A stretch of 37,988 bases of DNA. It comes from a virus (taxonomy: Duplodnaviria; Heunggongvirae; Uroviricota; Caudoviricetes). The position numbers and the translations under genes were made by a program. Shown here one piece after another: positions 7,866 through 37,979 of this stretch. The notes under the pieces were generated by a model. The model was not told the origin of the DNA and did not search any database. It saw nothing but the letters and a program-made list of their open reading frames with translations. Every line of letters starts with the position of its first letter. The first letter of the stretch is position 1. The DNA lies in the IMG/VR virus record IMGVR_UViG_2737471821_000001, positions 1 to 37,988 of that record, one strand, 5' to 3'.

Positions 7866-8155
7866 TGGTGGATTTACGTAAAGCGGCGCGGGGGCAGATG
7901 TGCACCGTCAGAATTCCTGGCTACTGCAATCACAATCCCGAAACTTCTGTGCTGGCGCATTACCGACTGGCGGGGACGTGCGGAACAGCGGCAAAACCAC
8001 ACGATATGCAGGCAGCGATTGCCTGTAGATCGTGCCACGATTTAATCGACGGGCGGGTAAAAACCAGTGATTACACCAAAGAAGAATTACGCCTGATGCA
8101 TGCAGAAGGTGTTTTTCGCACACAAGAAATCTGGAGAAAGGAGGGATATTTATGA
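7865..8155 (+). CDS. YbcO-like prophage protein (DUF1364, Cys-rich putative nuclease)
   Basis: 96-aa protein with conserved Cys/His pattern (C..C...H...C..C) similar to lambdoid YbcO as recalled. TAATG overlap with the upstream gene. Confidence 0.55.
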   Translation: MVDLRKAARGQMCTVRIPGYCNHNPETSVLAHYRLAGTCGTAAKPHDMQAAIACRSCHDLIDGRVKTSDYTKEELRLMHAEGVFRTQEIWRKEGYL

Positions 8156-8694
8156 TTTACCCAACGAATACAGGAAAAAGCGGAGAACACCTTCGTCTCA
8201 CTACGCTGGAAAGTGTCTGGATTCAGGGAAAACTACGTATGTGGGGGCGCTGGTCATATATTGGTGGTGGCAGGTCAGGAAATATGTTCAATCAGTTGTT
8301 GGCATCCAAAAAATTGACGAAAACAGCCATCAATGAAGCCCTGCGCAGAATGAAAAAAGCGGGAATAGAGAAACCTGAGCTGGAAGCGTTTTTGCGAGAG
8401 ATGATCAATGGTAAGCAAAAGAGCTGGCTGGCGCATTGTACTGATGCAGAGGCGTTATGTATTGATCGGGTTATAAGTGAGGTGCTGGCAGAACATCCGG
8501 GATTGATTAGCATCCTCCGACAACGGTATGAGGGGCGAGGAATGAGTAAGAGAAGGATGGCCGGGTTACTAAACGAACAGTATCCAGAGTGTTGTTTTAG
8601 CACATGCGAAAAGCGAATTGCTAATTGGTTGGCTGTTGCTGAGTGTGCGCTATACATTCCCATGCGAGAATCATTTGCTCAAAAAATGGCTTGA
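8152..8694 (+). CDS. putative late-gene antiterminator (Q-like)
   Basis: 180-aa ORF at the end of the nin-like region, directly upstream of an intrinsic terminator and the late region. Cys-containing C-terminus; AAGGAGGG RBS. Assignment is positional. Confidence 0.45.
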   Translation: MIYPTNTGKSGEHLRLTTLESVWIQGKLRMWGRWSYIGGGRSGNMFNQLLASKKLTKTAINEALRRMKKAGIEKPELEAFLREMINGKQKSWLAHCTDAEALCIDRVISEVLAEHPGLISILRQRYEGRGMSKRRMAGLLNEQYPECCFSTCEKRIANWLAVAECALYIPMRESFAQKMA

Positions 8695-8778
8695 TTTCTT
8701 ACGCATAAACTGCTTCAATTCCGATACGCTTCGCAAAGCTGTATCGCGTGGCGAATTAATCGCATGAACTTCACCAGA

Positions 8779-8805
8779 ACCCGCCATTGAGCGGGTTTTG
8801 TTGTT
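8779..8805 (+). terminator. intrinsic terminator downstream of the Q-like gene (tR'-like)
   Basis: ACCCGC-CATTGA-GCGGGT hairpin followed by TTTGTTGTT. Confidence 0.55.
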
Positions 8806-9141
8806 ATGTTTAACCATCTACGGGAGAGCTGGCGCTCTACTGACTGGTATTTTGATAACGAAATCTTAAATATTTTATATTGTGATTGTTAGTTGTCTAA
8901 ATTTTATGTATGTTAAGCGGCACAGGATTCCTCCTGCGACGAAGTTTTAGTGGAATCATTATTTACTTTTCTTATGCCAGCCTTTCCTTGAGGTTGGTTT
9001 TTTTATACCTGAAAAAGCAGGTTGGTACGTTAAACTTTATGATGGCTATGCAATTTTAGTTTCTCCTTTCCTGAACCCTCTTGACTACATGGAATTTTCT
9101 TTGTTATGTAAAGCGAGTTAATGTTGTTAAGTTGTTAGAGG

Positions 9142-9861
9142 ATGATTATGGGTGACAGTACTCTGCTCAGGAATTCTTCACTTTTTGTTGCTTACATGGG
9201 GTGTCTTGGGTGGGGAAGTGCTTATTTCTATGGCTGGGGTACTTCCTTTTACTATGGCTTTCCATGGTGGGTTGTCGGGGCCGGTGTTGATGATGTGGCC
9301 AGAAGCCTGTTTTATGCTGTCACAGTTATCGTTATATTCTTGGCTGGATGGGGGATCGGTATTGTCTTCTTTCTGGGGATCAAACAAAAAAATAATATGA
9401 AGGATTTGAGTGCTGTCAGGCTTTTTCTTGCGATATTGTTGCTTTTTGTTCCTCCGGCTCTGGAGTTTTCGGTAATTCATCAGCACTTTGTACCAGATGC
9501 ATTGGTTTTATGCGCTATTGTGGCATTAATAATTACCATGTTCGTCAGAACGGGCAGGAAGTTTATTTACGTTAAATGTATTTCTGAAGTGTCTTTTATT
9601 CGGCATCACAAGATTGAGTGTGTTATGGCCGGATTCATGCTCTATTTCTGGTTGTTTTCGCTTATTGCTGGATGGTACAAACCTCAGTTTAAGAAGGAGT
9701 ATCAGACACTTCACTATGAGAGCGTTTGGTATTACGTTCTTGCTCGCTATGGTGATCGCTTGGTTTTATCAAAATCGTACAGGCACGGTAGTACGAATTT
9801 CGTTATACTTAATAGCGCACATACAGATGAATTTGAAATTAATATAGTCAAAGTGCGCTAA
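9142..9861 (+). CDS. integral membrane protein, cargo (moron) gene
   Basis: 239-aa ORF in an AT-rich island between the Q-like gene and the tRNA genes. Several hydrophobic segments and an aromatic/Gly-rich N-terminus (GWGSAYFYGWGTSFYYGFPWW). GAGG RBS. Confidence 0.55.
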   Translation: MIMGDSTLLRNSSLFVAYMGCLGWGSAYFYGWGTSFYYGFPWWVVGAGVDDVARSLFYAVTVIVIFLAGWGIGIVFFLGIKQKNNMKDLSAVRLFLAILLLFVPPALEFSVIHQHFVPDALVLCAIVALIITMFVRTGRKFIYVKCISEVSFIRHHKIECVMAGFMLYFWLFSLIAGWYKPQFKKEYQTLHYESVWYYVLARYGDRLVLSKSYRHGSTNFVILNSAHTDEFEINIVKVR

Positions 9862-10001
9862 AACATTATGAGTAACCGGGATATAGACTTTTCTGCTTGT
9901 TGTTCAGATATTTTTACTTGATTGTAGCTGACATACAAGATTTAAACGGTTGTGTTGGGTGGATTACAGCGCTAAACTGATTCAGTCAATATTTTTCAAT
10001 C

Positions 10002-10077
10002 GGCCCTTTAGCTCAGTGGTGAGAGCGAGCGACTCATAATCGCCAGGTCGCTGGTTCAAATCCAGCAAGGGCCACCA
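10002..10077 (+). tRNA. tRNA with CAU anticodon (Ile2/lysidine-type or Met; ileZ-like)
   Basis: Cloverleaf folded by hand: acceptor GGCCCTT/AAGGGCC, D-arm GCTC..GAGC, anticodon loop CTCATAA, T-arm GCTGG-TTCAAAT-CCAGC, encoded CCA. Confidence 0.8.
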
Positions 10078-10079
10078 TT

Positions 10080-10156
10080 CCGCCACTAGCTCATCGGGAT
10101 AGAGCATCAACCTTCTAAGTTGATTGTGCGAGGTTCGAGTCCTCGGTGGCGGACCA
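10080..10156 (+). tRNA. tRNA-Arg (UCU anticodon; argN/argO-like)
   Basis: Acceptor CCGCCAC/GTGGCGG, anticodon loop CTTCTAA, T-arm CGAGG-TTCGAGT-CCTCG, encoded CCA. Starts 3 nt after the previous tRNA. Confidence 0.7.
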
Positions 10157-10676
10157 TTCCATGCAAGTTTAGCTGGCAGCGCTATTAGCTCGGCGTAATA
10201 GGGCTATTCGTTAGGCTCTGTTAGTTCACCATATTTCGTCAAAACTTTTCTTTTCAACGCTACAGTTAACATTAATCATTACAAAAACTACTGTTGATGT
10301 AAGTCTTGTGAACTGTTATTTCTGAAGAGCTTACTGTGATTTATTGCGACAACGGAGTTAGCGTACTCCCAATTTGTTCATTTTTATGTTGTTTTTTTTC
10401 GCAATTTCCTGTGAGAAATCAGAAGTCTGGATGAAATAACATAAATTGTATGCGTCTGATACATATTTATACATATGTTTAAATATGAAAACTAATTAGT
10501 TTTTGATGTCATATAAATTATCGGTAATATTACTCTCGACCCGAAAGGCAGCAAGTTTCTGTTCACAGGGGTGTTACCCGCTGTCTTGCGGGTCATTGCT
10601 GGCATCCGTTTAATCATAATGAAGGGCTGTTATCAGTATCAGTGTCATTATTGTGGTTACGGAGGCCTGCTCTATA

Positions 10677-10747
10677 TGCAGGTATCGTATAGTGGTTATT
10701 ACATCAGCCTTAGGTTGGTAATGCCGGTTCGATTCCTGTTCTCCGCA
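10677..10747 (+). pseudogene. degenerate tRNA-like element related to the tRNA-Gly copy at 11461
   Basis: D-arm (ATCGTATAGTGGTTATTAC) and T-loop (GGTTCGATTCC) are conserved, but the anticodon stem cannot pair and the acceptor stem has mismatches. Confidence 0.4.
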
Positions 10748-11107
10748 ACTTCATTGTTTTTTGGACAAGTTTTTACAGCACTGGCGGTTTTCGTGAGGAA
10801 CAGATCTCTTTAATACCTTTATCGTCCCTCATTCTGTAATGGAGATCGGTTACAGACTCAGTGCTGTATTTTTTATGACACAGAAATGGCGCATTGCCCA
10901 CGAAAGGAAGCAGGATTTAGCGTGGAGTAACCAGTGATGCGCCATCTCTGTGTCGGAAAACATGAATTGGGGCGTTCCTCAGTGCGAGGGTGGTTTATAG
11001 AGTCGGTTTAGCGGGAAACCACAGTATCCACGTAAAGTGGAATACTTCGGGAGGCACCCGATGCCCCAAACCCAATAATCATTATAATATTGTGTCCTTT
11101 TATCGTT

Positions 11108-11175
11108 TTAGCCGCCGCCCCGGGCGGTTTTTTTATTCAGTTTTTATGGCTCGCCCTGGCGGGCCTTTTTCATTG
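11108..11175 (+). repeat. copy 1 of a ~65-bp terminator-containing direct repeat
   Basis: GCCGCCCCGGGCGGTTTTTTTATTCAGTTTTTATGGCTCGCCCTGGCGGGCCTTTTTCAT, two hairpin/T-run units; near-identical copy at 11780..11845. Confidence 0.6.
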
Positions 11176-11460
11176 TGTGCCGGAATTCTCAGCTGCCGGT
11201 GGGTGGTGATCAGACGGCAAAAGAGATAACTAAAGATTTTTAATTCGGTTATGATATGGCTTGTATATTTATGATACATATGTATACATATTTTCAAAAA
11301 TAAAAACCAAATATATTTTGGATATCTGAAAAACAGTTGTTAGTATTTTTGCGTCTGGAAGGTGTTTATCTTTTATGTTAGCAGGGGTGCTGTTTGCCAC
11401 CGGAAAGACCAGTGCGGGCTCTCTTGGTAATTCGTGTTATTCCGGGGGCCAGCACAGTAT

Positions 11461-11533
<73 letters not shown>

Positions 11534-11779
11534 AACAGTAACTAAGGCGAGATTGTGTTAGGCACTGACATAATATATGTAGGGTGTTTTTTATGGTTCC
11601 TTGCGCCCCCTGTTCTGTAATGAGTGATATTCGTTGCGGTTCCAGTGCCATTTTTTACACCATCGGAATAATGCATTATTAGCAAATATTTTTACTACTT
11701 TAAATGCATTATTCTGATGTTGTAAACATCGACAAAAACAAAACTGTGATTGGTCATATACTAAGCCAAGCCCGGAAAT

Positions 11780-11845
11780 ACATCCTTAACCGCCGCACCT
11801 GGCGGTTTTTTTTTATTCAGTTTTTTATGGCTCGCTCCGGCGGGC
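11780..11845 (+). repeat. copy 2 of the ~65-bp terminator-containing direct repeat
   Basis: CCGCCGCACCTGGCGGTTTTTTTTTATTCAGTTTTTTATGGCTCGCTCCGGCGGGCCTTTTTCAT, compare 11108..11175. Confidence 0.6.
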
Positions 11846-11937
11846 CTTTTTCATATCCGCGCCACGCCCGGCGCACATCACATCAGATAACACCACACAA
11901 AAGGCATCTGCGGGTGCCTTTGACAGGGTGTTTTTAC

Positions 11938-11960
11938 GGGCCGCTGGCGGCCCTTTTTTA
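11938..11960 (+). terminator. intrinsic terminator
   Basis: GGGCCGC-TGG-CGGCCC hairpin followed by TTTTTTATTT, immediately upstream of the holin-like gene. Confidence 0.55.
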
Positions 11961-11978
11961 TTTGTGGGAGGAAAAAGC

Positions 11979-12350
11979 ATGTCTGAACCCTTATCCGGTT
12001 CCGGTACGGCTGCGGCGCTCGGTGGGGCGACGGTATTTGGACTGTTTACCGGAACGGATTTCGGGATTGTGTTTGGTGCATTCGCCGGGGCGTTGTTTGT
12101 GGCGACGATACCCCAGCAGATTTCTGTCTGGCGTGTGGCGGCGCATTTTCTGGTGTCGTTTATCGTTGGCGTGCTGGGGGCGGATGTCATGGCGTCTTAT
12201 CTGGTCGAAAAACTGGGGCTACACAGCACATCTCTCGACGCGCTTTGCGCGGTACTGGTATCGGTGATTTCGGTGAAGATTCTGTCGTTCATCCACCAGC
12301 AGGATATTGCATCACTGGTATCGCAAACCATCCTGACGACGCAGTTCTGA
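11979..12350 (+). CDS. putative holin / small membrane protein
   Basis: 123-aa protein with Gly-rich hydrophobic helices (GGATVFGLFTGTDFGIVFGAFAGALFVA); GGGAGGA RBS. First gene of the late region, where lysis genes usually sit. Confidence 0.4.
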   Translation: MSEPLSGSGTAAALGGATVFGLFTGTDFGIVFGAFAGALFVATIPQQISVWRVAAHFLVSFIVGVLGADVMASYLVEKLGLHSTSLDALCAVLVSVISVKILSFIHQQDIASLVSQTILTTQF

Positions 12351-12388
12351 CGGAGGAGGACTTTAAATCGCGGATCGTCGGTAGCGTC

Positions 12389-13363
12389 ATGCTGCCGTAT
12401 ATCCGGGGTGATGAGGTATGGGCGGTGTGCCGCGTTTACCTCCAGAGCATTGTTGAAGAAATCACTGAGGGGGATGTTTCGACAAGCCCGTCGGCGGTGT
12501 TCAACAGCACATCAGGAAATGTGGAAGTACAGGAAGGTGACACCAATTTTTTAATCGAAGGCGTTCCTTTCCTTGTTGATCACATCGCCCTGGTGACGAA
12601 AGACCACGGCTCGCTGGGCGTGTGGGATAAAGACCGGATCCCCGCAGGGGTTGAAGTGACAAATACAGGTGAAATTGAGATGGAAAAAGAAGAACTCCAG
12701 GCCCTGTTACAGGGGGTGGTGAACGATGCCATGAGCGGAATTAATCAGAAAATCGATGGAGTAGTCACGCGCATGGACTCACTGGAACAGCGGGACAAAG
12801 CGCGGGCGGATGCCGAAGAGCAGGCGAAAAAAGAGGCCGAAGAAAAGGCCAAAGCCGATGAAGCCGCAGAGGAACAGCGTAAAGCTGATGAAGCTGCGGC
12901 AAAGGAGGCGGAAGAAAAAGCCAAAGCTGACGAGGAGGCAGAAAAAGAACGCAATGACTCTGCCCTGGCCGAAGCACAGGCAAAAGCCGACTCCGCATTC
13001 AGTGCCTGCGGTAAAAACGCGCCAGCACCGTTTTCTGGAGAAAATGCGCTGGACTACCGCAAGCGTGCGCTTATCGCTATGCAGAAACACTCTCCGGCAC
13101 ATAAGGACGTCAATATTCGCGCGATTGCGGATTCTGCAACTCTGGCTGTGCTTGAGGACGCAATTTTCAGTGCCGCCCGTCAGTCCATCGAAAAAGAAAT
13201 GATGAGTACGCAGGGGCAACTGCATAAACGTATCCGCAACGATGAAGCCGGGCGTCGCATTACTGAATATCAGGGCGATCCGAACGTCTGGCTGAGTGCC
13301 TTCAAAATTCCGGGGCGTCGTCTGGCAAAAATTAACACTCAAGGGAGCCTGAACAATGGCTGA
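12389..13363 (+). CDS. putative head scaffold-like protein with coiled-coil repeat, possibly 5'-truncated
   Basis: First ATG with a plausible context; the reading frame stays open upstream to 12245, overlapping the holin-like gene. Central Ala/Glu/Lys-rich coiled-coil (EEQAKKEAEEKAKADEAAEEQRKADEAAAKEAEEKAKADEEAEKER). Lies upstream of the capsid-like gene. Confidence 0.4.
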   Translation: MLPYIRGDEVWAVCRVYLQSIVEEITEGDVSTSPSAVFNSTSGNVEVQEGDTNFLIEGVPFLVDHIALVTKDHGSLGVWDKDRIPAGVEVTNTGEIEMEKEELQALLQGVVNDAMSGINQKIDGVVTRMDSLEQRDKARADAEEQAKKEAEEKAKADEAAEEQRKADEAAAKEAEEKAKADEEAEKERNDSALAEAQAKADSAFSACGKNAPAPFSGENALDYRKRALIAMQKHSPAHKDVNIRAIADSATLAVLEDAIFSAARQSIEKEMMSTQGQLHKRIRNDEAGRRITEYQGDPNVWLSAFKIPGRRLAKINTQGSLNNG

Positions 13364-34364: not shown

Positions 34365-35498
34365 TTAGAACTGATAAACCAGACCTAAAGCGACAATATC
34401 ATCGGTAGAGATGCCATTGGCAGCGTAGAAGCTGTCATCTTCATCCAACAGGTTGATTTTATAGTCAACGTAGGTGGACATGTTTTTATTGAAATAGTAA
34501 GTCGCGCCAATATCGGCGTATTTAACCAGATCTTTATCATCAACACCTGCCGGGTTGTCTGCACCACCCGCAGCGTGCAGGTCACGGCCTTTAGACATCA
34601 GGAAAGAGACTGCCGGACGCAGACCAAAATCAAACTGGTACTGTGCAGTGACTTCAAAATTCTGGGTTTTGTTTGCCACAGCATAATCGCTGTCGCCAAA
34701 CGGGGTCATATTACGCGTTTCTGAATACATGGTTGCCAGGTAAATATTGTTAGCATCGTATTTTAGCCCAGCAGTCCACGCGTCTGCTTTATCACCACCC
34801 GCCGCAGTATGGTTAACCTGGTCATTGGTGCGGTCAGAAGAGGTGTATGCCGCACCAGCGCTAAAGCCCATGCCTAAATCATATGTTGTGGAAAGACCCC
34901 AGCCGTCACCGTTTTCATGGCGAACATCACGTCCGTTGTTGGTGCCTTCCTGACCATTACTGGCTCCTTCGTTGTTACCTTGATACTGCACCGCGAAGTT
35001 CAGACCATTTACCAGACCGAAGAAATCAGTATTACGATAAGTCGCGACGCCATTGGCTCGACCAGTCATAAAGTTGTCTGCATTGGTATAAGCGTCACCG
35101 CCAAATTCAGGCAGCATATCGGTCCAGCCTTCGATGTCGTACATTACGCCATAATTACGTCCGTAATCGAAAGAACCGTAATCTGCAAATTTCAGCCCGG
35201 CAAATGCCAGACGGGTCCATGACTGGTTTTTTGAAGATTCAGTGTTGTTTGCCTGAATATTGTATTCCCATTGACCGTAGCCAGTGAGTTGATCGTTAAT
35301 TTGGGTTTCGCCTTTAAAACCCAGACGCGCATAGCTCTGGTCGCCATCTTTCGCTGAATTATCAGAAAAATAATGCAGGCCATCAACTTTGCCATACAGA
35401 TCTAATTTGTTGCCGTCTTTATTATAAACTTCGGCTGCATGTGCAGCACCAGCGGCGAGCAGGGCAGGAATTAAAAGTGCCAGTACTTTGCTTTTCAT
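34365..35498 (-). CDS. ompN: outer membrane porin OmpN (OmpC/OmpF family)
   Basis: 377-aa protein with signal peptide [21 protein letters not shown] and C-terminal GLVYQF typical of general porins; sits between uspF and ydbK. Confidence 0.85.
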
Positions 35499-35725
35499 TG
35501 AATAAATCCTTTAGTTATTTTATTTGCCTTTTATCCCCATTTCGGGGAGTGAAAACATCCTAAAGGAGAAGTTCAGTTAGCCGATAAATATCATTTGTTA
35601 CGCCTTAAGTAAAACCTTAATCAAATAATTCCTCTGAAATGATAATAAGTCTGGTGAATGTATCGAAGATAATACATACAAAATAAAAATTATACTTTTA
35701 ATTTGCTATACGTTATTCTGCGCGG

Positions 35726-35836
35726 GTTATATGCCTTTATTGTCACAGATTTTATTTTCTGTTGGGCCATTGCATTGCCACTGATTTTCCAACATATAAA
35801 AAGACAAGCCCGAACAGTCGTCCGGGCTTTTTTTTT
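35726..35836 (+). ncRNA. micC: MicC small regulatory RNA
   Basis: Sequence GTTATATGCCTTTATTGTCACAGATTTTATTTTCTGTTGGGCCATTGCATTGCCACTGATTTTCCAACATATAAAAAGACAAGCCCGAACAGTCGTCCGGGCTTTTTTTTT matches MicC as recalled, ending in its intrinsic terminator; lies in the ompN-ydbK intergenic region. Confidence 0.75.
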
Positions 35837-35864
35837 AGAATTGGATAATCCTTATCCAGAGCAT

Positions 35865-37979
35865 TTAATCGGTGTTGCTTTTTTCCGCTTTTCCGGCCAT
35901 TTGTGCCAGGAAGTCATAGCGTTTTTGCAAATCAGCTGCAGCATCTTTCCATAACTGTTCTGCCACTTCTGGCTGCTGCGAATTCAGCCGACGGAAACGT
36001 TGCTCGTGAAGTAACGTTTCTTCCAGTGCTTCTGACGGCGGGCGTGAATCCAAGGCCAGCGGCAGTTTGCCTTCATCGGCACGACGCGGATCAAAGCGAT
36101 ATAGCGGCCAGAAGCCGGTAGCTGTGAGTTGGCGCATCTGGTCGTGGCTGAGTGCCAGATCGTAACCATGCTCTTCACACGGGCTATAAGCAATGATCAG
36201 CGATGGCCCCGGATACGCTTCCGCTTCCTGAATCGCTTTCACCGTCTGGTTCAGCTGCGCGCCGAGAGAAATCTGCGCCACATAAACATGACCGTACATC
36301 ATCATACTGACGCCAAGATCTTTACGCGCTTTACGTTTGCCGTGCTCGCCAAATTTAGTTACTGCACCCAGCGGTGTCGCTTTCGACGCCTGACCACCGG
36401 TGTTGGAATAGCATTGCGTATCCAGCACCAGAATGTTGACGTTTTCCGTCAAACTCAATACATGATCCAGACCGCCAAAGCCGATATCGTAAGCCCAGCC
36501 ATCACCACCAATCAGCCAGATTGATTTTTCCACCAGTGCATCTGCATCACGTAGCAGTTCATGTGCTTCGGCAACATCGTTGAGTTGCTGGCGTAAAGCT
36601 GCAACCTGTTCACGACGAACCTCTGGCGTGGCGTCTGATTTCAACGCCGTCAGTAATTCCGCCGGGATTTTATCGGCAAATTGATCCAGCAGACGCAGCA
36701 CGCGGACACGGTGTTGATCGACCGTCAGGCGGAAACCAAGGCCAAATTCGGCATTATCTTCAAATAGAGAGTTCGCCCATGCCGGCCCACGACCGTTGGC
36801 ATCGGTGGTATACGGTGTAGAGGGCAGGTTACCGCCATAAATTGAAGAACAGCCAGTGGCGTTAGCGATCAACATCCGGTCGCCATAGAGCTGAGTCAGT
36901 AATTTAATATACGGCGTCTCGCCACAACCGGAGCAAGCACCTGAATATTCAAACAGCGGTGTAATCAGCTGCGATGTACGAATATCAATACGTTCCAGTT
37001 TGCTACGGTCGATTTCTGGCAGGTTGAGGAAGAAATCGTAATTGATTTTCTCTTCTTCGACATGTTCCAGGCGAGACATCATATTGATGGCTTTAATCTC
37101 TGGATTCTGACGGTCTTTCGCCGGGCAAACTTCGACGCACAGGTTACAACCGGTGCAATCTTCCGGTGCCACCTGCAAGACATATTTCTGCCCGCGCATA
37201 TCACGCGATTTCACATCCAGCGAATGCAGGCTGGCAGGGGCGTTTTCCATCGCTTCAGGCGGCACCACTTTTGCGCGAATAGCTGAGTGTGGGCAAGCGG
37301 CAACGCAGTGGTTACATTGGGTACAGAGTTCCTCTTTCAAGATGGGGATCTCTTCGGCGATATTGCGTTTTTCCCAGCGCGTAGTGCCCATCGGCCAGGT
37401 GCCGTCTGGCGGCAGCGCCGAAACGGGGAGGGCGTCACCAAGCCCGGCGAGCATCGCAGCGGTTACGGTTTTCACGAAATCAGGGGCGGCATCGGAAACC
37501 ACTGGCGGTCGATTGGCGCTGTGCGGATTTACCGGTTGCAACGGAACTTCTTCTACGGATTCACGCGCCAGCGCCAGAGCCTGCCAGTTGCGTTCCACCA
37601 GATCCTGGCCTTTGCTACTGTAACTTTTGGCAATCGCACCCTGCAATTCTGCGAGGGCGCTATCGCCAGGCAGAATTTGCGTCAGATGGAAAAAAGCCAT
37701 CTGCATGACGGTATTAATACGGGCCGCCAGGCCACATTCGCGGGCGATTTTCGCCGCGTTAATCACATAGAAGCGCGCTTTTTTCTGGTTTAACACGGCC
37801 TGAACTTCTTGCGGCAAGCGCGACCACACTTCATCTGCGCTGTACGGCGTGTTGAGCAGGAAAATGCCGCCAGGTTTTAAACGCTCAGCCATCTGATATT
37901 TATCGATAAACTGCAACTGGTGGCAGCCAACAAAATCAGCCTGGGAAATGAGATAAGCGGAACGAATCGGCTGTGTGTG
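35865..37979 (-). CDS. ydbK: pyruvate:flavodoxin/ferredoxin oxidoreductase, C-terminal ~700 codons (partial; the N-terminal part lies beyond the window edge)
   Basis: 4Fe-4S ferredoxin motifs (CTQCNHCVAACP, CTGCNLCVEVCP) and a TPP-binding region (GGDGWAYDIGFGGLDHV). The frame is open upstream of the track start to 37979. Confidence 0.85.
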   Translation of the reverse strand, partial: HTQPIRSAYLISQADFVGCHQLQFIDKYQMAERLKPGGIFLLNTPYSADEVWSRLPQEVQAVLNQKKARFYVINAAKIARECGLAARINTVMQMAFFHLTQILPGDSALAELQGAIAKSYSSKGQDLVERNWQALALARESVEEVPLQPVNPHSANRPPVVSDAAPDFVKTVTAAMLAGLGDALPVSALPPDGTWPMGTTRWEKRNIAEEIPILKEELCTQCNHCVAACPHSAIRAKVVPPEAMENAPASLHSLDVKSRDMRGQKYVLQVAPEDCTGCNLCVEVCPAKDRQNPEIKAINMMSRLEHVEEEKINYDFFLNLPEIDRSKLERIDIRTSQLITPLFEYSGACSGCGETPYIKLLTQLYGDRMLIANATGCSSIYGGNLPSTPYTTDANGRGPAWANSLFEDNAEFGLGFRLTVDQHRVRVLRLLDQFADKIPAELLTALKSDATPEVRREQVAALRQQLNDVAEAHELLRDADALVEKSIWLIGGDGWAYDIGFGGLDHVLSLTENVNILVLDTQCYSNTGGQASKATPLGAVTKFGEHGKRKARKDLGVSMMMYGHVYVAQISLGAQLNQTVKAIQEAEAYPGPSLIIAYSPCEEHGYDLALSHDQMRQLTATGFWPLYRFDPRRADEGKLPLALDSRPPSEALEETLLHEQRFRRLNSQQPEVAEQLWKDAAADLQKRYDFLAQMAGKAEKSNTD

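Follow-up and report, generated by a model that had tools for sequence, protein, structure and literature searches.

The gene at positions 9148–9861 of the phage DNA analysed here (a stretch of 37,988 nucleotides, hereafter the window) is, judged by its homologues, a member of the family that is listed as PF27470 TfpB in Pfam, as 'STM1630 family protein' in RefSeq and as phrog_1521 in the PHROGs. It appears to be a moron, self-contained cargo with a candidate promoter of its own in the form of a conserved upstream element. We read its product, tentatively, as a non-enzymatic envelope factor, with a predicted topology of N-terminus in and C-terminus in the periplasm, whose gene would be transcribed from its own promoter and which would serve the lysogen in an animal niche. 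As the initial annotation had placed it, the gene lies between a Q-like gene and a tRNA cluster, and the features of the locus are as follows.

8152–8694, + strand: Q-like antiterminator gene of the DUF1133 type, the upstream neighbour (Pfam DUF1133, E 1.2e-104)
8775–8800, + strand: terminator-like hairpin just past the Q-like gene (10-pair stem with 6 GC pairs, T-rich tail)
8852–8881, + strand: promoter-like TTGATA-18-TATATT (10 of 12 consensus positions, the best + strand match in the region)
8976–9005, + strand: terminator-like hairpin with T run (9-pair stem, then TTTTTTT)
9081–9110, + strand: sigma-70-like element TTGACT-N13-TTTGTTATG, conserved, candidate own promoter of the gene
9137–9141, + strand: Shine-Dalgarno AGAGG, read from the sequence as serving the ATG at 9148
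9148–9861, + strand: coding sequence of the predicted TfpB/STM1630-family inner-membrane protein, 237 aa (the 239-aa open reading frame minus two codons)
10002–10077 and 10080–10156, + strand: pair of tRNAs, one with a CAT anticodon and one tRNA-Arg (TCT), called by ARAGORN, Rfam and RefSeq
11110–11165, + strand: two strong terminator-like hairpins, the first ones past the gene and the tRNAs

The 239-aa open reading frame at 9142–9861 (+) and its aromatic/Gly-rich N-terminus were found as initially described, but the start of translation probably has to be moved. The true start is most likely the ATG at 9148, with a product of 237 rather than 239 aa, because the ATG at 9142 overlaps the AGAGG (9137–9141) whereas that at 9148 lies 6 nt past it, because the RefSeq start of the identical gene in strain RM11911 is the equivalent of 9148, and because the methionine at 9148 is the point from which all homologues align. 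With more than 100 homologous clusters for the 9148–9861 protein and a dN/dS of 0.13–0.18 between alleles of the gene (at dS 0.6–0.8), which indicates purifying selection, the reading frame is, by these comparisons, not a chance one. The exact protein sequence is already public as 'membrane protein [E. coli]', and protein and family stand in RefSeq, Pfam and the PHROGs; the sequence is thus not new.

The initial annotation could assign no family, yet one exists. The profile of phrog_1521, a family of unknown function, is matched at E 1.7e-85 by residues 19–239 against profile positions 1–221 of 222, and E. coli alleles that are 80% identical at the DNA level are labelled 'STM1630 family protein' in RefSeq. 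PF27470 is precomputed on every homologue among the matches listed, including a cluster representative that is 97% identical; membership of the window protein in PF27470 is read via these homologues, since the Pfam set that we scanned directly comes without that model and gave only one match, to an Apicomplexa microprotein, which at 16 bits falls short of the cut-off of 27 and is put down to chance. NCBIfam gave no match for the window protein. The family profile recovers the Moraxella loci at E 1e-58 to 2e-46, a Moraxella protein named 'protein tfpB' by JGI carries PF27470, and the primer used for the deletion of STM1630 encodes NSSMLLAYLGGLGWG, which is the N-terminus of the family.

The earlier description of a polytopic membrane protein with several hydrophobic helices is borne out by the structural predictions. 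A hydropathy scan gives three broad hydrophobic blocks, and the AlphaFold2 model built on a diverse alignment to which distant members had been added (pLDDT 84, pTM 0.79) contains five long helices (10–36, 47–82, 88–111, 116–136 and 155–181) and a five-strand beta domain (184–235); a first model from a shallow alignment reached a pLDDT of only 61 and was discarded. Across the family, the N-terminus (+0.7), loop 2 (+1.9) and loop 4 (+3.0) carry a positive net charge, loop 1 (−0.6) a negative one and loop 3 none (0). Four distant full-length members, which have named relatives in Gallibacterium, Avibacterium and Neisseria, share a PC...C cysteine pair in their C-terminal domain. The loop charges and the conserved cysteine pair thus point to a C-terminal beta domain in the periplasm. 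The model is that of an inner-membrane protein with a cytoplasmic N-terminus, five transmembrane helices and an aromatic-rich loop, YYGFPWW, that would face the periplasm, as the SH3-like beta domain of about 55 residues probably does. Distant members, at 230–262 aa, can be aligned end to end, and the model of the window protein shows the architecture of the family (about 230–260 aa, five hydrophobic helices and a short beta-rich C-terminus with a YY(V/I)L strand).

In the TfpB family as a whole, no block is better conserved than the aromatic/Gly motif. Its hallmark, A-Y-x-Y-G-W-G-x3-Y-Y-G-(F/Y)-P-W-W at residues 25–41, followed by A-R-S-L at 51–54 (237-aa numbering), consists of columns that are invariant or nearly so in two family alignments. 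Nearly invariant residues are confined to A, Y, W, G, P, F and L plus two Arg, and none of the positions conserved across the family alignments is D, E, H or K. With no conserved polar catalytic residue, an 'envelope-modifying' role in the enzymatic sense, as had been suggested, is unlikely. No homology to a housekeeping transporter was encountered. No PDB sequence was picked up by a profile search at E up to 10. With Foldseek, neither PDB nor BFVD contained a match at E ≤ 0.001, the top PDB matches being MscS (E 0.4–1.5, TM-scores below 0.2). Single family members matched bPH_10 and MscS_TM weakly in Pfam (E about 0.05). The structural matches to MscS and to SH3-like domains (KorB, the integrase C-terminal domain) are weak and were judged non-specific.

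The upstream neighbour is recognised as a Q gene on several grounds, its product matching PHROG 753 'anti-termination protein Q-like' (E 1.3e-77) and, weakly, Phage_antitermQ (28.4 bits, cut-off 26), in addition to DUF1133. By analogy with lambda, whose layout is matched by a position between Q and the next terminator, the promoter-like sequence at 8852–8881 may be the late promoter (a pR' analogue), and the hairpin at 8976–9005 is a candidate tR' analogue. This hairpin aligns with the post-Q terminator of phage 434 and of E. coli strain 135, and it forms the left edge of a block common to other prophages: DNA homology to strain 135, at 80%, starts at 8993, and the whole of 8993–10156 is 80% identical there, behind a different Q gene. 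The CAT-anticodon member of the tRNA pair is Met according to ARAGORN and Ile according to RefSeq. By sequence comparison, the pair and the gene belong to one exchangeable block in many prophages, and tRNAs lie within 700 nt downstream of the gene in 18 of 72 IMG/VR loci. There is no terminator-like site between 9861 and 10002, so transcripts from 9081–9110 would run through the tRNAs and stop at 11110–11165 unless antiterminated. The prophage in the window is at the Rac site: on the right it ends at ompN and ydbK of the host, and on the left it has matches to recE/kilR/ydaT/ydaV-type genes in strain RM11911.

The element at 9081–9110 is composed of a −35 hexamer, TTGACT (9081–9086), a variable spacer, a TG (9102–9103) and a −10 hexamer, TATGTA (9105–9110). 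The −10 hexamer is weak, and a simple promoter scan missed the site because its last base is not T; the promoter call rests on conservation. TTGAC(T/G)-N13-TTTGTTATG is found 37–39 nt upstream of the ATG in 70 of the 72 IMG/VR loci, among alleles that are 55–100% identical and with a spacer that varies, and TTGAC-N13-TTTGTTATG is kept on an enterotoxigenic E. coli (ETEC) plasmid despite an unrelated upstream context. Among the element matches listed, TfpB is downstream at 29 sites, 28 of which have a recognisable Q gene upstream (from three Q families), and the element was never found behind Q without TfpB. We considered a Q-specific late promoter and rejected it, because the element accompanies three Q families, is also present on a plasmid that lacks Q and, in the sample scanned, never stands behind Q in the absence of the gene. 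Since the element accompanies the gene behind three Q families, the gene has the character of a promoter-bearing moron.

Other traits of morons are present in part. Relatives are found in 3 of 50,697 deposited phage records, namely phage 434 and phage 2B8 (the latter twice); phage 434B, which is without the region, is still propagated as a phage; and the gene occurs with different Q genes and precedes three different lysis cassettes. It is thus both sporadic and dispensable for the phage. No terminator follows it directly, the first terminator-like sites being those at 11110–11165, and it is therefore not a textbook promoter-gene-terminator moron. Its composition is unlike that of its neighbours, with a GC content of 41.3% against 46–51% in the three upstream genes, 53–55% in the two downstream genes and 47.4% in the window, and rare codons are enriched: ATA accounts for 5 of 18 Ile codons (54 of 349 in the other phage open reading frames) and AGA/AGG for 6 of 10 Arg codons (49 of 271). 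The GC and codon comparisons agree with what had been expected of the gene. The AT-rich zone extends beyond it and takes in the entire 8.5–11.5 kb stretch. The view of the gene as cargo at the Q-to-lysis position is strengthened by this composition, by the conserved promoter-like element and by the gene's absence from most related phages.

A close phage-borne counterpart is gp68 of phage 434 (CPT_434_68, 'putative membrane protein'), which is 58% identical and is also present in phage 2B8 and in O157:H7 prophages. It is likewise the first gene past Q and its terminator and has the same upstream element, but the Q gene is of another family, and a DUF3927 gene and a sialate-esterase-like gene follow it in place of tRNAs. 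Expert curators using HHpred found no function for gp68. The insertion zone and the lower GC content are shared with the lambdoid Q-to-lysis morons, such as stx in Stx phages and LT-II in Rac-like prophages, which are also linked to ileZ/argN-type tRNA genes, and the LT-II phages are likewise at the Rac site (PMC5917428). The products of those morons, on the other hand, are secreted toxins, whereas the protein studied here would be retained by the cell in its membrane.

The family as a whole comprises only 70 representatives among 1.84 billion proteins, all of them in animal-associated members of the Enterobacteriaceae, Pasteurellaceae, Neisseriaceae and Moraxellaceae. It is common in prophages, with relatives in 186 IMG/VR contigs, and 1197 of 5426 complete E. 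coli genomes (about a fifth) have detectable DNA similarity, which is full-length in about 8%. In Pasteurellaceae and Neisseriaceae, the relatives are single genes amid unrelated housekeeping genes. Several other copies have neighbours with a role in infection: the ETEC plasmid copy adjoins eltAB (the LT toxin genes), that of Shigella pINV is a few kb from spa40, and that of Glaesserella adjoins a cdtA-like gene. In Klebsiella, a remote member is located in accessory DNA at the edge of a prophage, beside umuDC and a reverse transcriptase. In Moraxella bovis and M. lacunata, from which PF27470 takes its name, tfpB belongs to the invertible pilin segment, where it is flanked by two pilin genes and adjoins the piv recombinase gene; these proteins form a distant group, only about 22–27% identical to the window protein and with no phage context, but they have the same architecture and retain AYxYGWGxxxYxGYPWW and ARSL.

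STM1630 of Salmonella Typhimurium (SL1344_1560) is the sole family member with any experimental data. It has the same Pfam model, PF27470, the same length (238 aa) and the same N-terminal motif, and the Salmonella cluster P0252 is about 46% identical to the window protein. It too is AT-rich, of horizontal origin and under a promoter of its own, but it is chromosomal and outside any prophage, and its upstream region, unlike that of the window gene, does not contain TTGAC-N13-TTTGTTATG. STM1630 sits between the effector genes steB and sseJ, is bound by H-NS, is expressed in SPI-2-inducing medium and in macrophages, and is co-regulated with the SPI-2 regulon (PMC2639726); its promoter is inactivated in ST313 strains. 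Mutants were reported as attenuated in calves and chickens in a signature-tagged screen, and deletion raises replication in macrophages. Hypermotility was reported from a screen (PMC4219756), but STM1630 was not among the altered-motility mutants when clean deletions were re-tested (PMC4534456). The phenotypes are modest and partly contradictory, with attenuation in a screen yet more replication in macrophages.

Taken together, these data suggest to us, as a plausible though far from secured reading, an envelope factor that is brought to the lysogen as cargo. The gene would have been dropped just downstream of a Q antiterminator module and its terminator, and the sigma-70-type promoter at 9081–9110 would drive it in the lysogen; as in Salmonella, this promoter is probably silenced by H-NS and active only under certain conditions. 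After induction, Q-modified polymerase may provide a second, strong round of transcription. The protein would act alone, since its Pasteurellaceae and Neisseriaceae relatives are solitary genes, at the periplasmic face of the inner membrane, and would bind some membrane-anchored or periplasmic component; it would do so without catalysis, since the nearly invariant residues include no D, E, H or K. This would be a case of lysogenic conversion, in which the protein serves the bacterial host in an animal niche and not the multiplication of the phage. The link to the animal host is drawn from the STM1630 data, from the eltAB, spa40 and cdtA-like neighbours and from the confinement of the family to animal-associated bacteria. 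Adjacency to toxin and effector genes may, however, reflect only the clustering of AT-rich horizontally acquired DNA, and the fact that in phage 434 and an O157 prophage the gene simply opens the late operon also fits a role in the lytic cycle.

A factor for superinfection exclusion or anti-phage defence, as initially proposed, would block the entry of incoming phage DNA or abort infection, to the benefit of the lysogen or the lysing cell. P22 SieA and HK97 gp15 are precedents for membrane exclusion factors that consist of one protein, and a prophage moron with a candidate promoter that encodes a predicted inner-membrane protein with a conserved periplasmic face would suit such a role, as would the many prophage contigs and E. 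coli genomes with relatives and the surroundings of the Klebsiella member. However, PADLOC-DB gave no family at E up to 1, and no annotated PHROG exclusion family was matched, the matches being four PHROGs of unknown function that are all pieces of the same protein. Moreover, the segments of the gene have a dN/dS of 0.07–0.31 throughout, with no fast-evolving segment at the level of regions, and we have set aside an arms-race signature because the regional values indicate purifying selection only. Many members are lone genes among housekeeping genes, outside defence islands, no phage phenotype has been reported, and the one relative that has been studied belongs to a SPI-2 and macrophage regulon, tied to infection of the host. 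The proposal is left unsupported by these results, and we consider exclusion or defence unlikely.

An accessory of type IV pilins or pseudopilins, a role at which the name of the founding member hints and which would bind the membrane-anchored pilin pool and tune the assembly of a pilus or a secretion pseudopilus, seems improbable. The Moraxella linkage and the range of the family across Moraxella, Neisseria and Pasteurellaceae, which are rich in type IV pili, argue for it, as does the location of the conserved residues, in TM1-loop-TM2 and at the periplasmic side of the protein, the places at which contact with a pilin stem would be made. Unrelated TfpY/FimB-like membrane proteins work in a comparable way (PMC11841053). 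Those of the TfpY/TfpZ/FimB-like group (Pseudomonas, Dichelobacter, Acinetobacter, Neisseria) are of similar size (235–245 aa), share an inner-membrane location, a periplasmic C-terminal domain and the absence of a recognisable catalytic domain, and find a parallel in the one pilin-linked TfpB member; but they are always encoded beside the major pilin gene, while in our set only Moraxella has such neighbours, no pilin gene being present in the window or in the examined enterobacterial (Salmonella, E. coli, Shigella), Pasteurellaceae or Conchiformibius loci. When the two are compared by architecture, TfpY-like proteins combine three transmembrane helices with a large alpha/beta domain in the periplasm (PMC11841053), against five helices and a 55-residue all-beta domain here, and the literature on Moraxella tfpB yielded no experiment. 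Least probable of all is an accessory to late phage functions, for example one that regulates lysis timing or readies the membrane, with the Q-dependent late transcript as the only source of its expression. It draws on the position of the gene, which comes first past Q and the terminator in the window as well as in phage 434 and an O157:H7 prophage and which, as a gene for a membrane protein, lies just upstream of holin genes. Against it stand the growth of phage 434B without the gene, the unrelated nature of the three lysis cassettes that follow it, the plasmid and chromosomal relatives with no phage genes nearby, and a conserved promoter-like element that travels with the gene and not with Q. 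A holin or antiholin role was rejected in view of the varied lysis cassettes and the non-phage members.

A decidedly speculative reading is that TfpB/STM1630 proteins are a so far unrecognised class of mobile, promoter-equipped inner-membrane factors that bind the membrane stem of an envelope machine, either type IV pilins or pseudopilins or a component of phage DNA entry. If so, phage-borne copies would give the lysogen a new surface or exclusion phenotype, and one mechanism would cover the linkage to pilin genes in Moraxella, the phenotypes seen in Salmonella infection and the cargo position in prophages. What is new here is the connection between records that had been annotated separately: the E. 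coli gene, gp68 of phage 434, the LT-adjacent ETEC gene, the Shigella pINV gene, STM1630 and Moraxella tfpB are linked as one family with one predicted fold, whose phage copies share one promoter-like element. The Salmonella data hint at an effect on colonisation or the envelope; if the family has one, it would be a widespread and as yet uncharacterised lysogenic-conversion factor of enteric pathogens.

An open reading frame at 9142–9861 (+) is present, and its translation is as quoted in the initial annotation, which had described an AT-rich cargo gene for a polytopic membrane protein of 239 amino acids. The start, and with it the length, needs revision. Because the ATG at 9142 overlaps an AGAGG ribosome-binding sequence (9137–9141) and a second ATG at 9148 lies 6 nt downstream of it, because RefSeq starts the identical gene of E. 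coli RM11911 at the equivalent of 9148, and because the Met encoded there is where the alignment begins for all homologues, we take the gene as 9148–9861, encoding 237 amino acids. Judged from sequence comparison, the ORF is a real gene, since it has homologues in more than 100 protein clusters and pairwise dN/dS is 0.13–0.18 at dS 0.6–0.8; the N-terminal third is the most constrained (0.07–0.11). It lies where it had been placed, with a DUF1133-type Q-like antiterminator upstream (8152–8694) and two tRNAs, of anticodons CAT and TCT, directly 3′. Its GC content is 41.3%, against 47.4% for the window, 46–51% for the three upstream genes and 53–55% for the downstream genes. ATA supplies 5 of its 18 Ile codons, and AGA/AGG 6 of its 10 Arg codons, compared with 49 of 271 in the other phage ORFs. 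The reported AT-richness is borne out by GC content and characterises the entire 8.5–11.5 kb interval, not this gene alone; the composition, including this over-use of rare codons, fits a foreign origin. A real cargo gene had been correctly observed.

No family had been assigned. The protein is indeed uncharacterised but it is not uncatalogued, as a family exists under the names phrog_1521, PF27470 (TfpB) and STM1630. phrog_1521 (unknown function) matches along the entire protein (E 1.7e-85). PF27470, named ‘TfpB’ in genome-context records, is precomputed on every listed homologue, so that membership is read from the homologues' annotation and not from a score on the window protein. ‘STM1630 family protein’ is the RefSeq label of several E. 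coli alleles, 80% identical at the DNA level, and the exact 237-residue sequence is already public as ‘membrane protein [Escherichia coli]’. The family is small (at 50% identity, 70 representatives in a set of 1.84 billion proteins), and its members all come from Enterobacteriaceae, Pasteurellaceae, Neisseriaceae and Moraxellaceae.

From close homologues alone, AlphaFold2 produced a poor model (pLDDT 61); once distant members were included, pLDDT rose to 84, with pTM 0.79. Helices are predicted at residues 10–36, 47–82, 88–111, 116–136 and 155–181, followed by five strands (184–235). Net loop charges across the family (N-terminus +0.7, then −0.6, +1.9, 0 and +3.0) fit a topology in which the N-terminus and loops 2 and 4 would face the cytoplasm and the C-terminal domain would lie outside. 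A PC-x8-10-C pair is retained in the C-terminal domain of four distant full-length members (named relatives: Gallibacterium, Avibacterium and Neisseria); it is suggestive of a disulfide and so of a domain in the periplasm. On this topology, conservation is concentrated at the periplasmic ends of TM1, TM2 and TM5 and on strand 2 of the beta domain. The (nearly) invariant residues of the family are limited to A, Y, W, G, P, F, L and two Arg, and catalysis is unlikely, because the family alignments contain no conserved acid, His or Lys. A profile search of PDB sequences was empty, and Foldseek against PDB and BFVD returned nothing at E ≤ 0.001, the best PDB matches (MscS; SH3-like domains) having E 0.4–1; in these searches the model resembles no solved structure.

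Between the Q-like gene and the ATG, the following features are predicted:
8775–8800, hairpin terminator
8852–8881, promoter-like site
8976–9005, second hairpin with a T run
9081–9110, conserved element TTGACT-N13-TTTGTTATGTA, with TTGACT at 9081–9086

The terminator at 8976–9005 aligns with the post-Q terminators of phage 434 and of E. coli strain 135, which carries an 80%-identical block behind a different Q gene; DNA homology to that strain begins at 8993. Together with the promoter-like site, this terminator would be a candidate pR′/tR′ pair. The conserved element lies 37–39 nt 5′ of the ATG in 70 of 72 IMG/VR loci whose proteins are 55–100% identical to the window protein, with variable spacer and flanks, and is retained on an ETEC plasmid despite wholly unrelated upstream sequence. 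When IMG/VR was scanned for the pattern, TfpB was downstream at 29 element sites among the matches listed, 28 of them with a recognisable Q upstream; these Q genes belong to three families with no cross-matches between them. The same listed matches include no site with the element behind a Q without TfpB, and the other 51 are chance matches in unrelated contigs. Because each Q protein is specific to its own late promoter, yet the element stands behind three Q families, we read it as tied to the TfpB gene and probably its own promoter, with −35 TTGACT, an extended −10 TG and a weak −10 TATGTA. No terminator-like site was found between the gene and the tRNAs.

The CAT-anticodon tRNA (10002–10077) is ‘Met’ according to ARAGORN and tRNA-Ile in RefSeq for the identical gene, an ambiguity usual for ileZ-type tRNAs, in which C34 carries the lysidine modification. 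Together, this tRNA and tRNA-Arg(TCT) would decode ATA and AGA/AGG, the codons over-used by the adjacent membrane-protein gene. Further downstream, a sequence of about 800 nt is present as two diverged direct copies (10446–11250 and 11261–12000). Each contains an AT-rich palindromic segment and two strong terminator-like hairpins, as well as a tRNA or tRNA-like sequence. One carries a tRNA-like sequence at 10678–10747 (Rfam 31.8 bits, threshold 29; no ARAGORN call) and the other tRNA-Gly(TCC) at 11461–11533.

Compared with the matching RM11911 prophage (L001), the window lacks about 8 kb (junction 12319–12322; compare L001 15624–23656) and is otherwise 99.97% identical. The absent segment covers the end of the first holin gene along with a second holin, an M15 endolysin, the two terminase subunits and, adjoining the terminase genes, a large gene (Acb1-family protein in RefSeq). 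Because these lysis and terminase genes are missing, neither cell lysis nor DNA packaging should be possible for this prophage. The truncated holin ORF (11928–12350) runs into a DUF2213-type gene fragment (12245–13363), and the Ala/Glu/Lys-rich repeat in the DUF2213-type protein differs slightly in length between the two prophages (window 12905–12952; L001 24288–24314), which looks like repeat-number variation. A second AT-rich cargo-like ORF (25318–26493, +, 391 aa), within a stretch of 35–39% GC at 25.0–26.5 kb in the structural-gene region, directly upstream of a baseplate-J-like gene, has an HSDR_N (restriction-endonuclease-like N-terminal) domain (E 5.6e-14) and matches nothing in PADLOC; we regard it as a candidate nuclease or defence moron. 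The right end (34365–37916, −) encodes a general porin (377 aa, Porin_1 E 3e-145) and a pyruvate:flavodoxin-oxidoreductase-type protein. If these are host ompN and ydbK, as we read them, the prophage occupies the Rac integration site, which agrees with the recE/kilR/ydaT/ydaV-type left arm in L001.

The exact allele occurs in 5 complete E. coli genomes, and both inspected prophages with it have the order Q, gene, tRNA-Ile, tRNA-Arg. A relative is detectable by blastn in 1197 of 5426 E. coli genomes, and one is encoded on 186 IMG/VR viral contigs. Of the phages with deposited genomes, only 434 and 2B8 have a relative (58% identity). That of phage 434, CPT_434_68 (‘putative membrane protein’), is the first gene after a Q82-like gene and terminator, a layout shared by an O157:H7 prophage; the phage 434 curators used HHpred and named no function for it. 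In the variant 434B, the whole CPT_434_68 region is swapped for DLP12 DNA, and 434B gave no tblastn match; since 434B is still a phage, the gene is dispensable for phage growth. A remote Klebsiella member lies at a prophage edge, adjoining umuDC and a reverse transcriptase.

Relatives are also carried by 156 plasmids, 106 of them from Shigella. On S. flexneri pINV (L031, 6001–6717) the relative is flanked by IS1 on one side and by the spa40 end of the type III secretion genes on the other. Porcine ETEC plasmids have a member directly beside the LT enterotoxin genes eltAB; on pUMNK88_Ent (L032, 3987–6714) this is an 80% allele, divergently oriented, and its retention of the phage-type promoter element hints that the segment may derive from a lambdoid prophage. 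In Moraxella, the relative (‘protein tfpB’ according to JGI) is placed between piv, a gene for an IS110-type recombinase (322 aa), and pilin genes. It is intact in M. bovis and has a frameshift or stop after residue 195 in the pilin inversion region of M. lacunata NCTC10359 (L007, 7001–7760); no experimental paper on Moraxella tfpB was found. In Pasteurellaceae and Conchiformibius (Neisseriaceae), relatives are single genes flanked by unrelated housekeeping genes (smc/ftsK, a PTS gene, tsaB, thiF, rplY, plsB), some genomes having two copies.

The Salmonella relative, adjoining sseJ, is STM1630, whose published deletion primer encodes NSSMLLAYLGGLGWG, the N-terminus of the family, and it is the only member for which we found experimental data. 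Its function is called unknown; it lies between the effector genes steB and sseJ, is absent from S. Typhi, is bound by H-NS, is expressed by strain 4/74 in SPI-2-inducing medium and macrophages, and is silent in ST313 owing to two SNPs in the −10 box (Text S1, PMC6785131). Attenuation of mutants in calves and in chickens has been reported (Morgan 2004, cited in PMC6785131), and deletion in 4/74 gave more replication in macrophages (Text S1, PMC6785131). STM1630 belongs to a group of genes co-regulated with SPI-2 (PMC2639726). Hypermotility was seen in a screen (PMC4219756); when clean deletions were re-tested, STM1630 was not among the mutants with altered motility (PMC4534456).

What the protein does can be weighed against this background. 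The initial proposal of superinfection exclusion or defence is possible but rather unlikely, as the PHROG match, the PADLOC search and dN/dS offer nothing positive for it. A pilin-accessory role, to which the Moraxella context is the only pointer, is doubtful at best: the TfpY/FimB-like accessory proteins combine three transmembrane helices with a large periplasmic domain (PMC11841053), whereas five helices and five strands are modelled here. A role in lysis or another late function is disfavoured and the least probable of these, given 434B and the three different lysis cassettes found 3′ of the gene. We tentatively favour, at somewhat short of even odds, a promoter-bearing moron encoding a non-enzymatic envelope factor that would serve the lysogen in the animal host, because the family acts alone outside phages, the gene is dispensable for phage 434, relatives accompany toxin and effector loci, and the sole studied relative, STM1630, is in an infection regulon. 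There is good support for family membership, for the predicted fold, for mobility and for the conserved upstream element, and the useful outcome is that scattered annotations are unified as one family.
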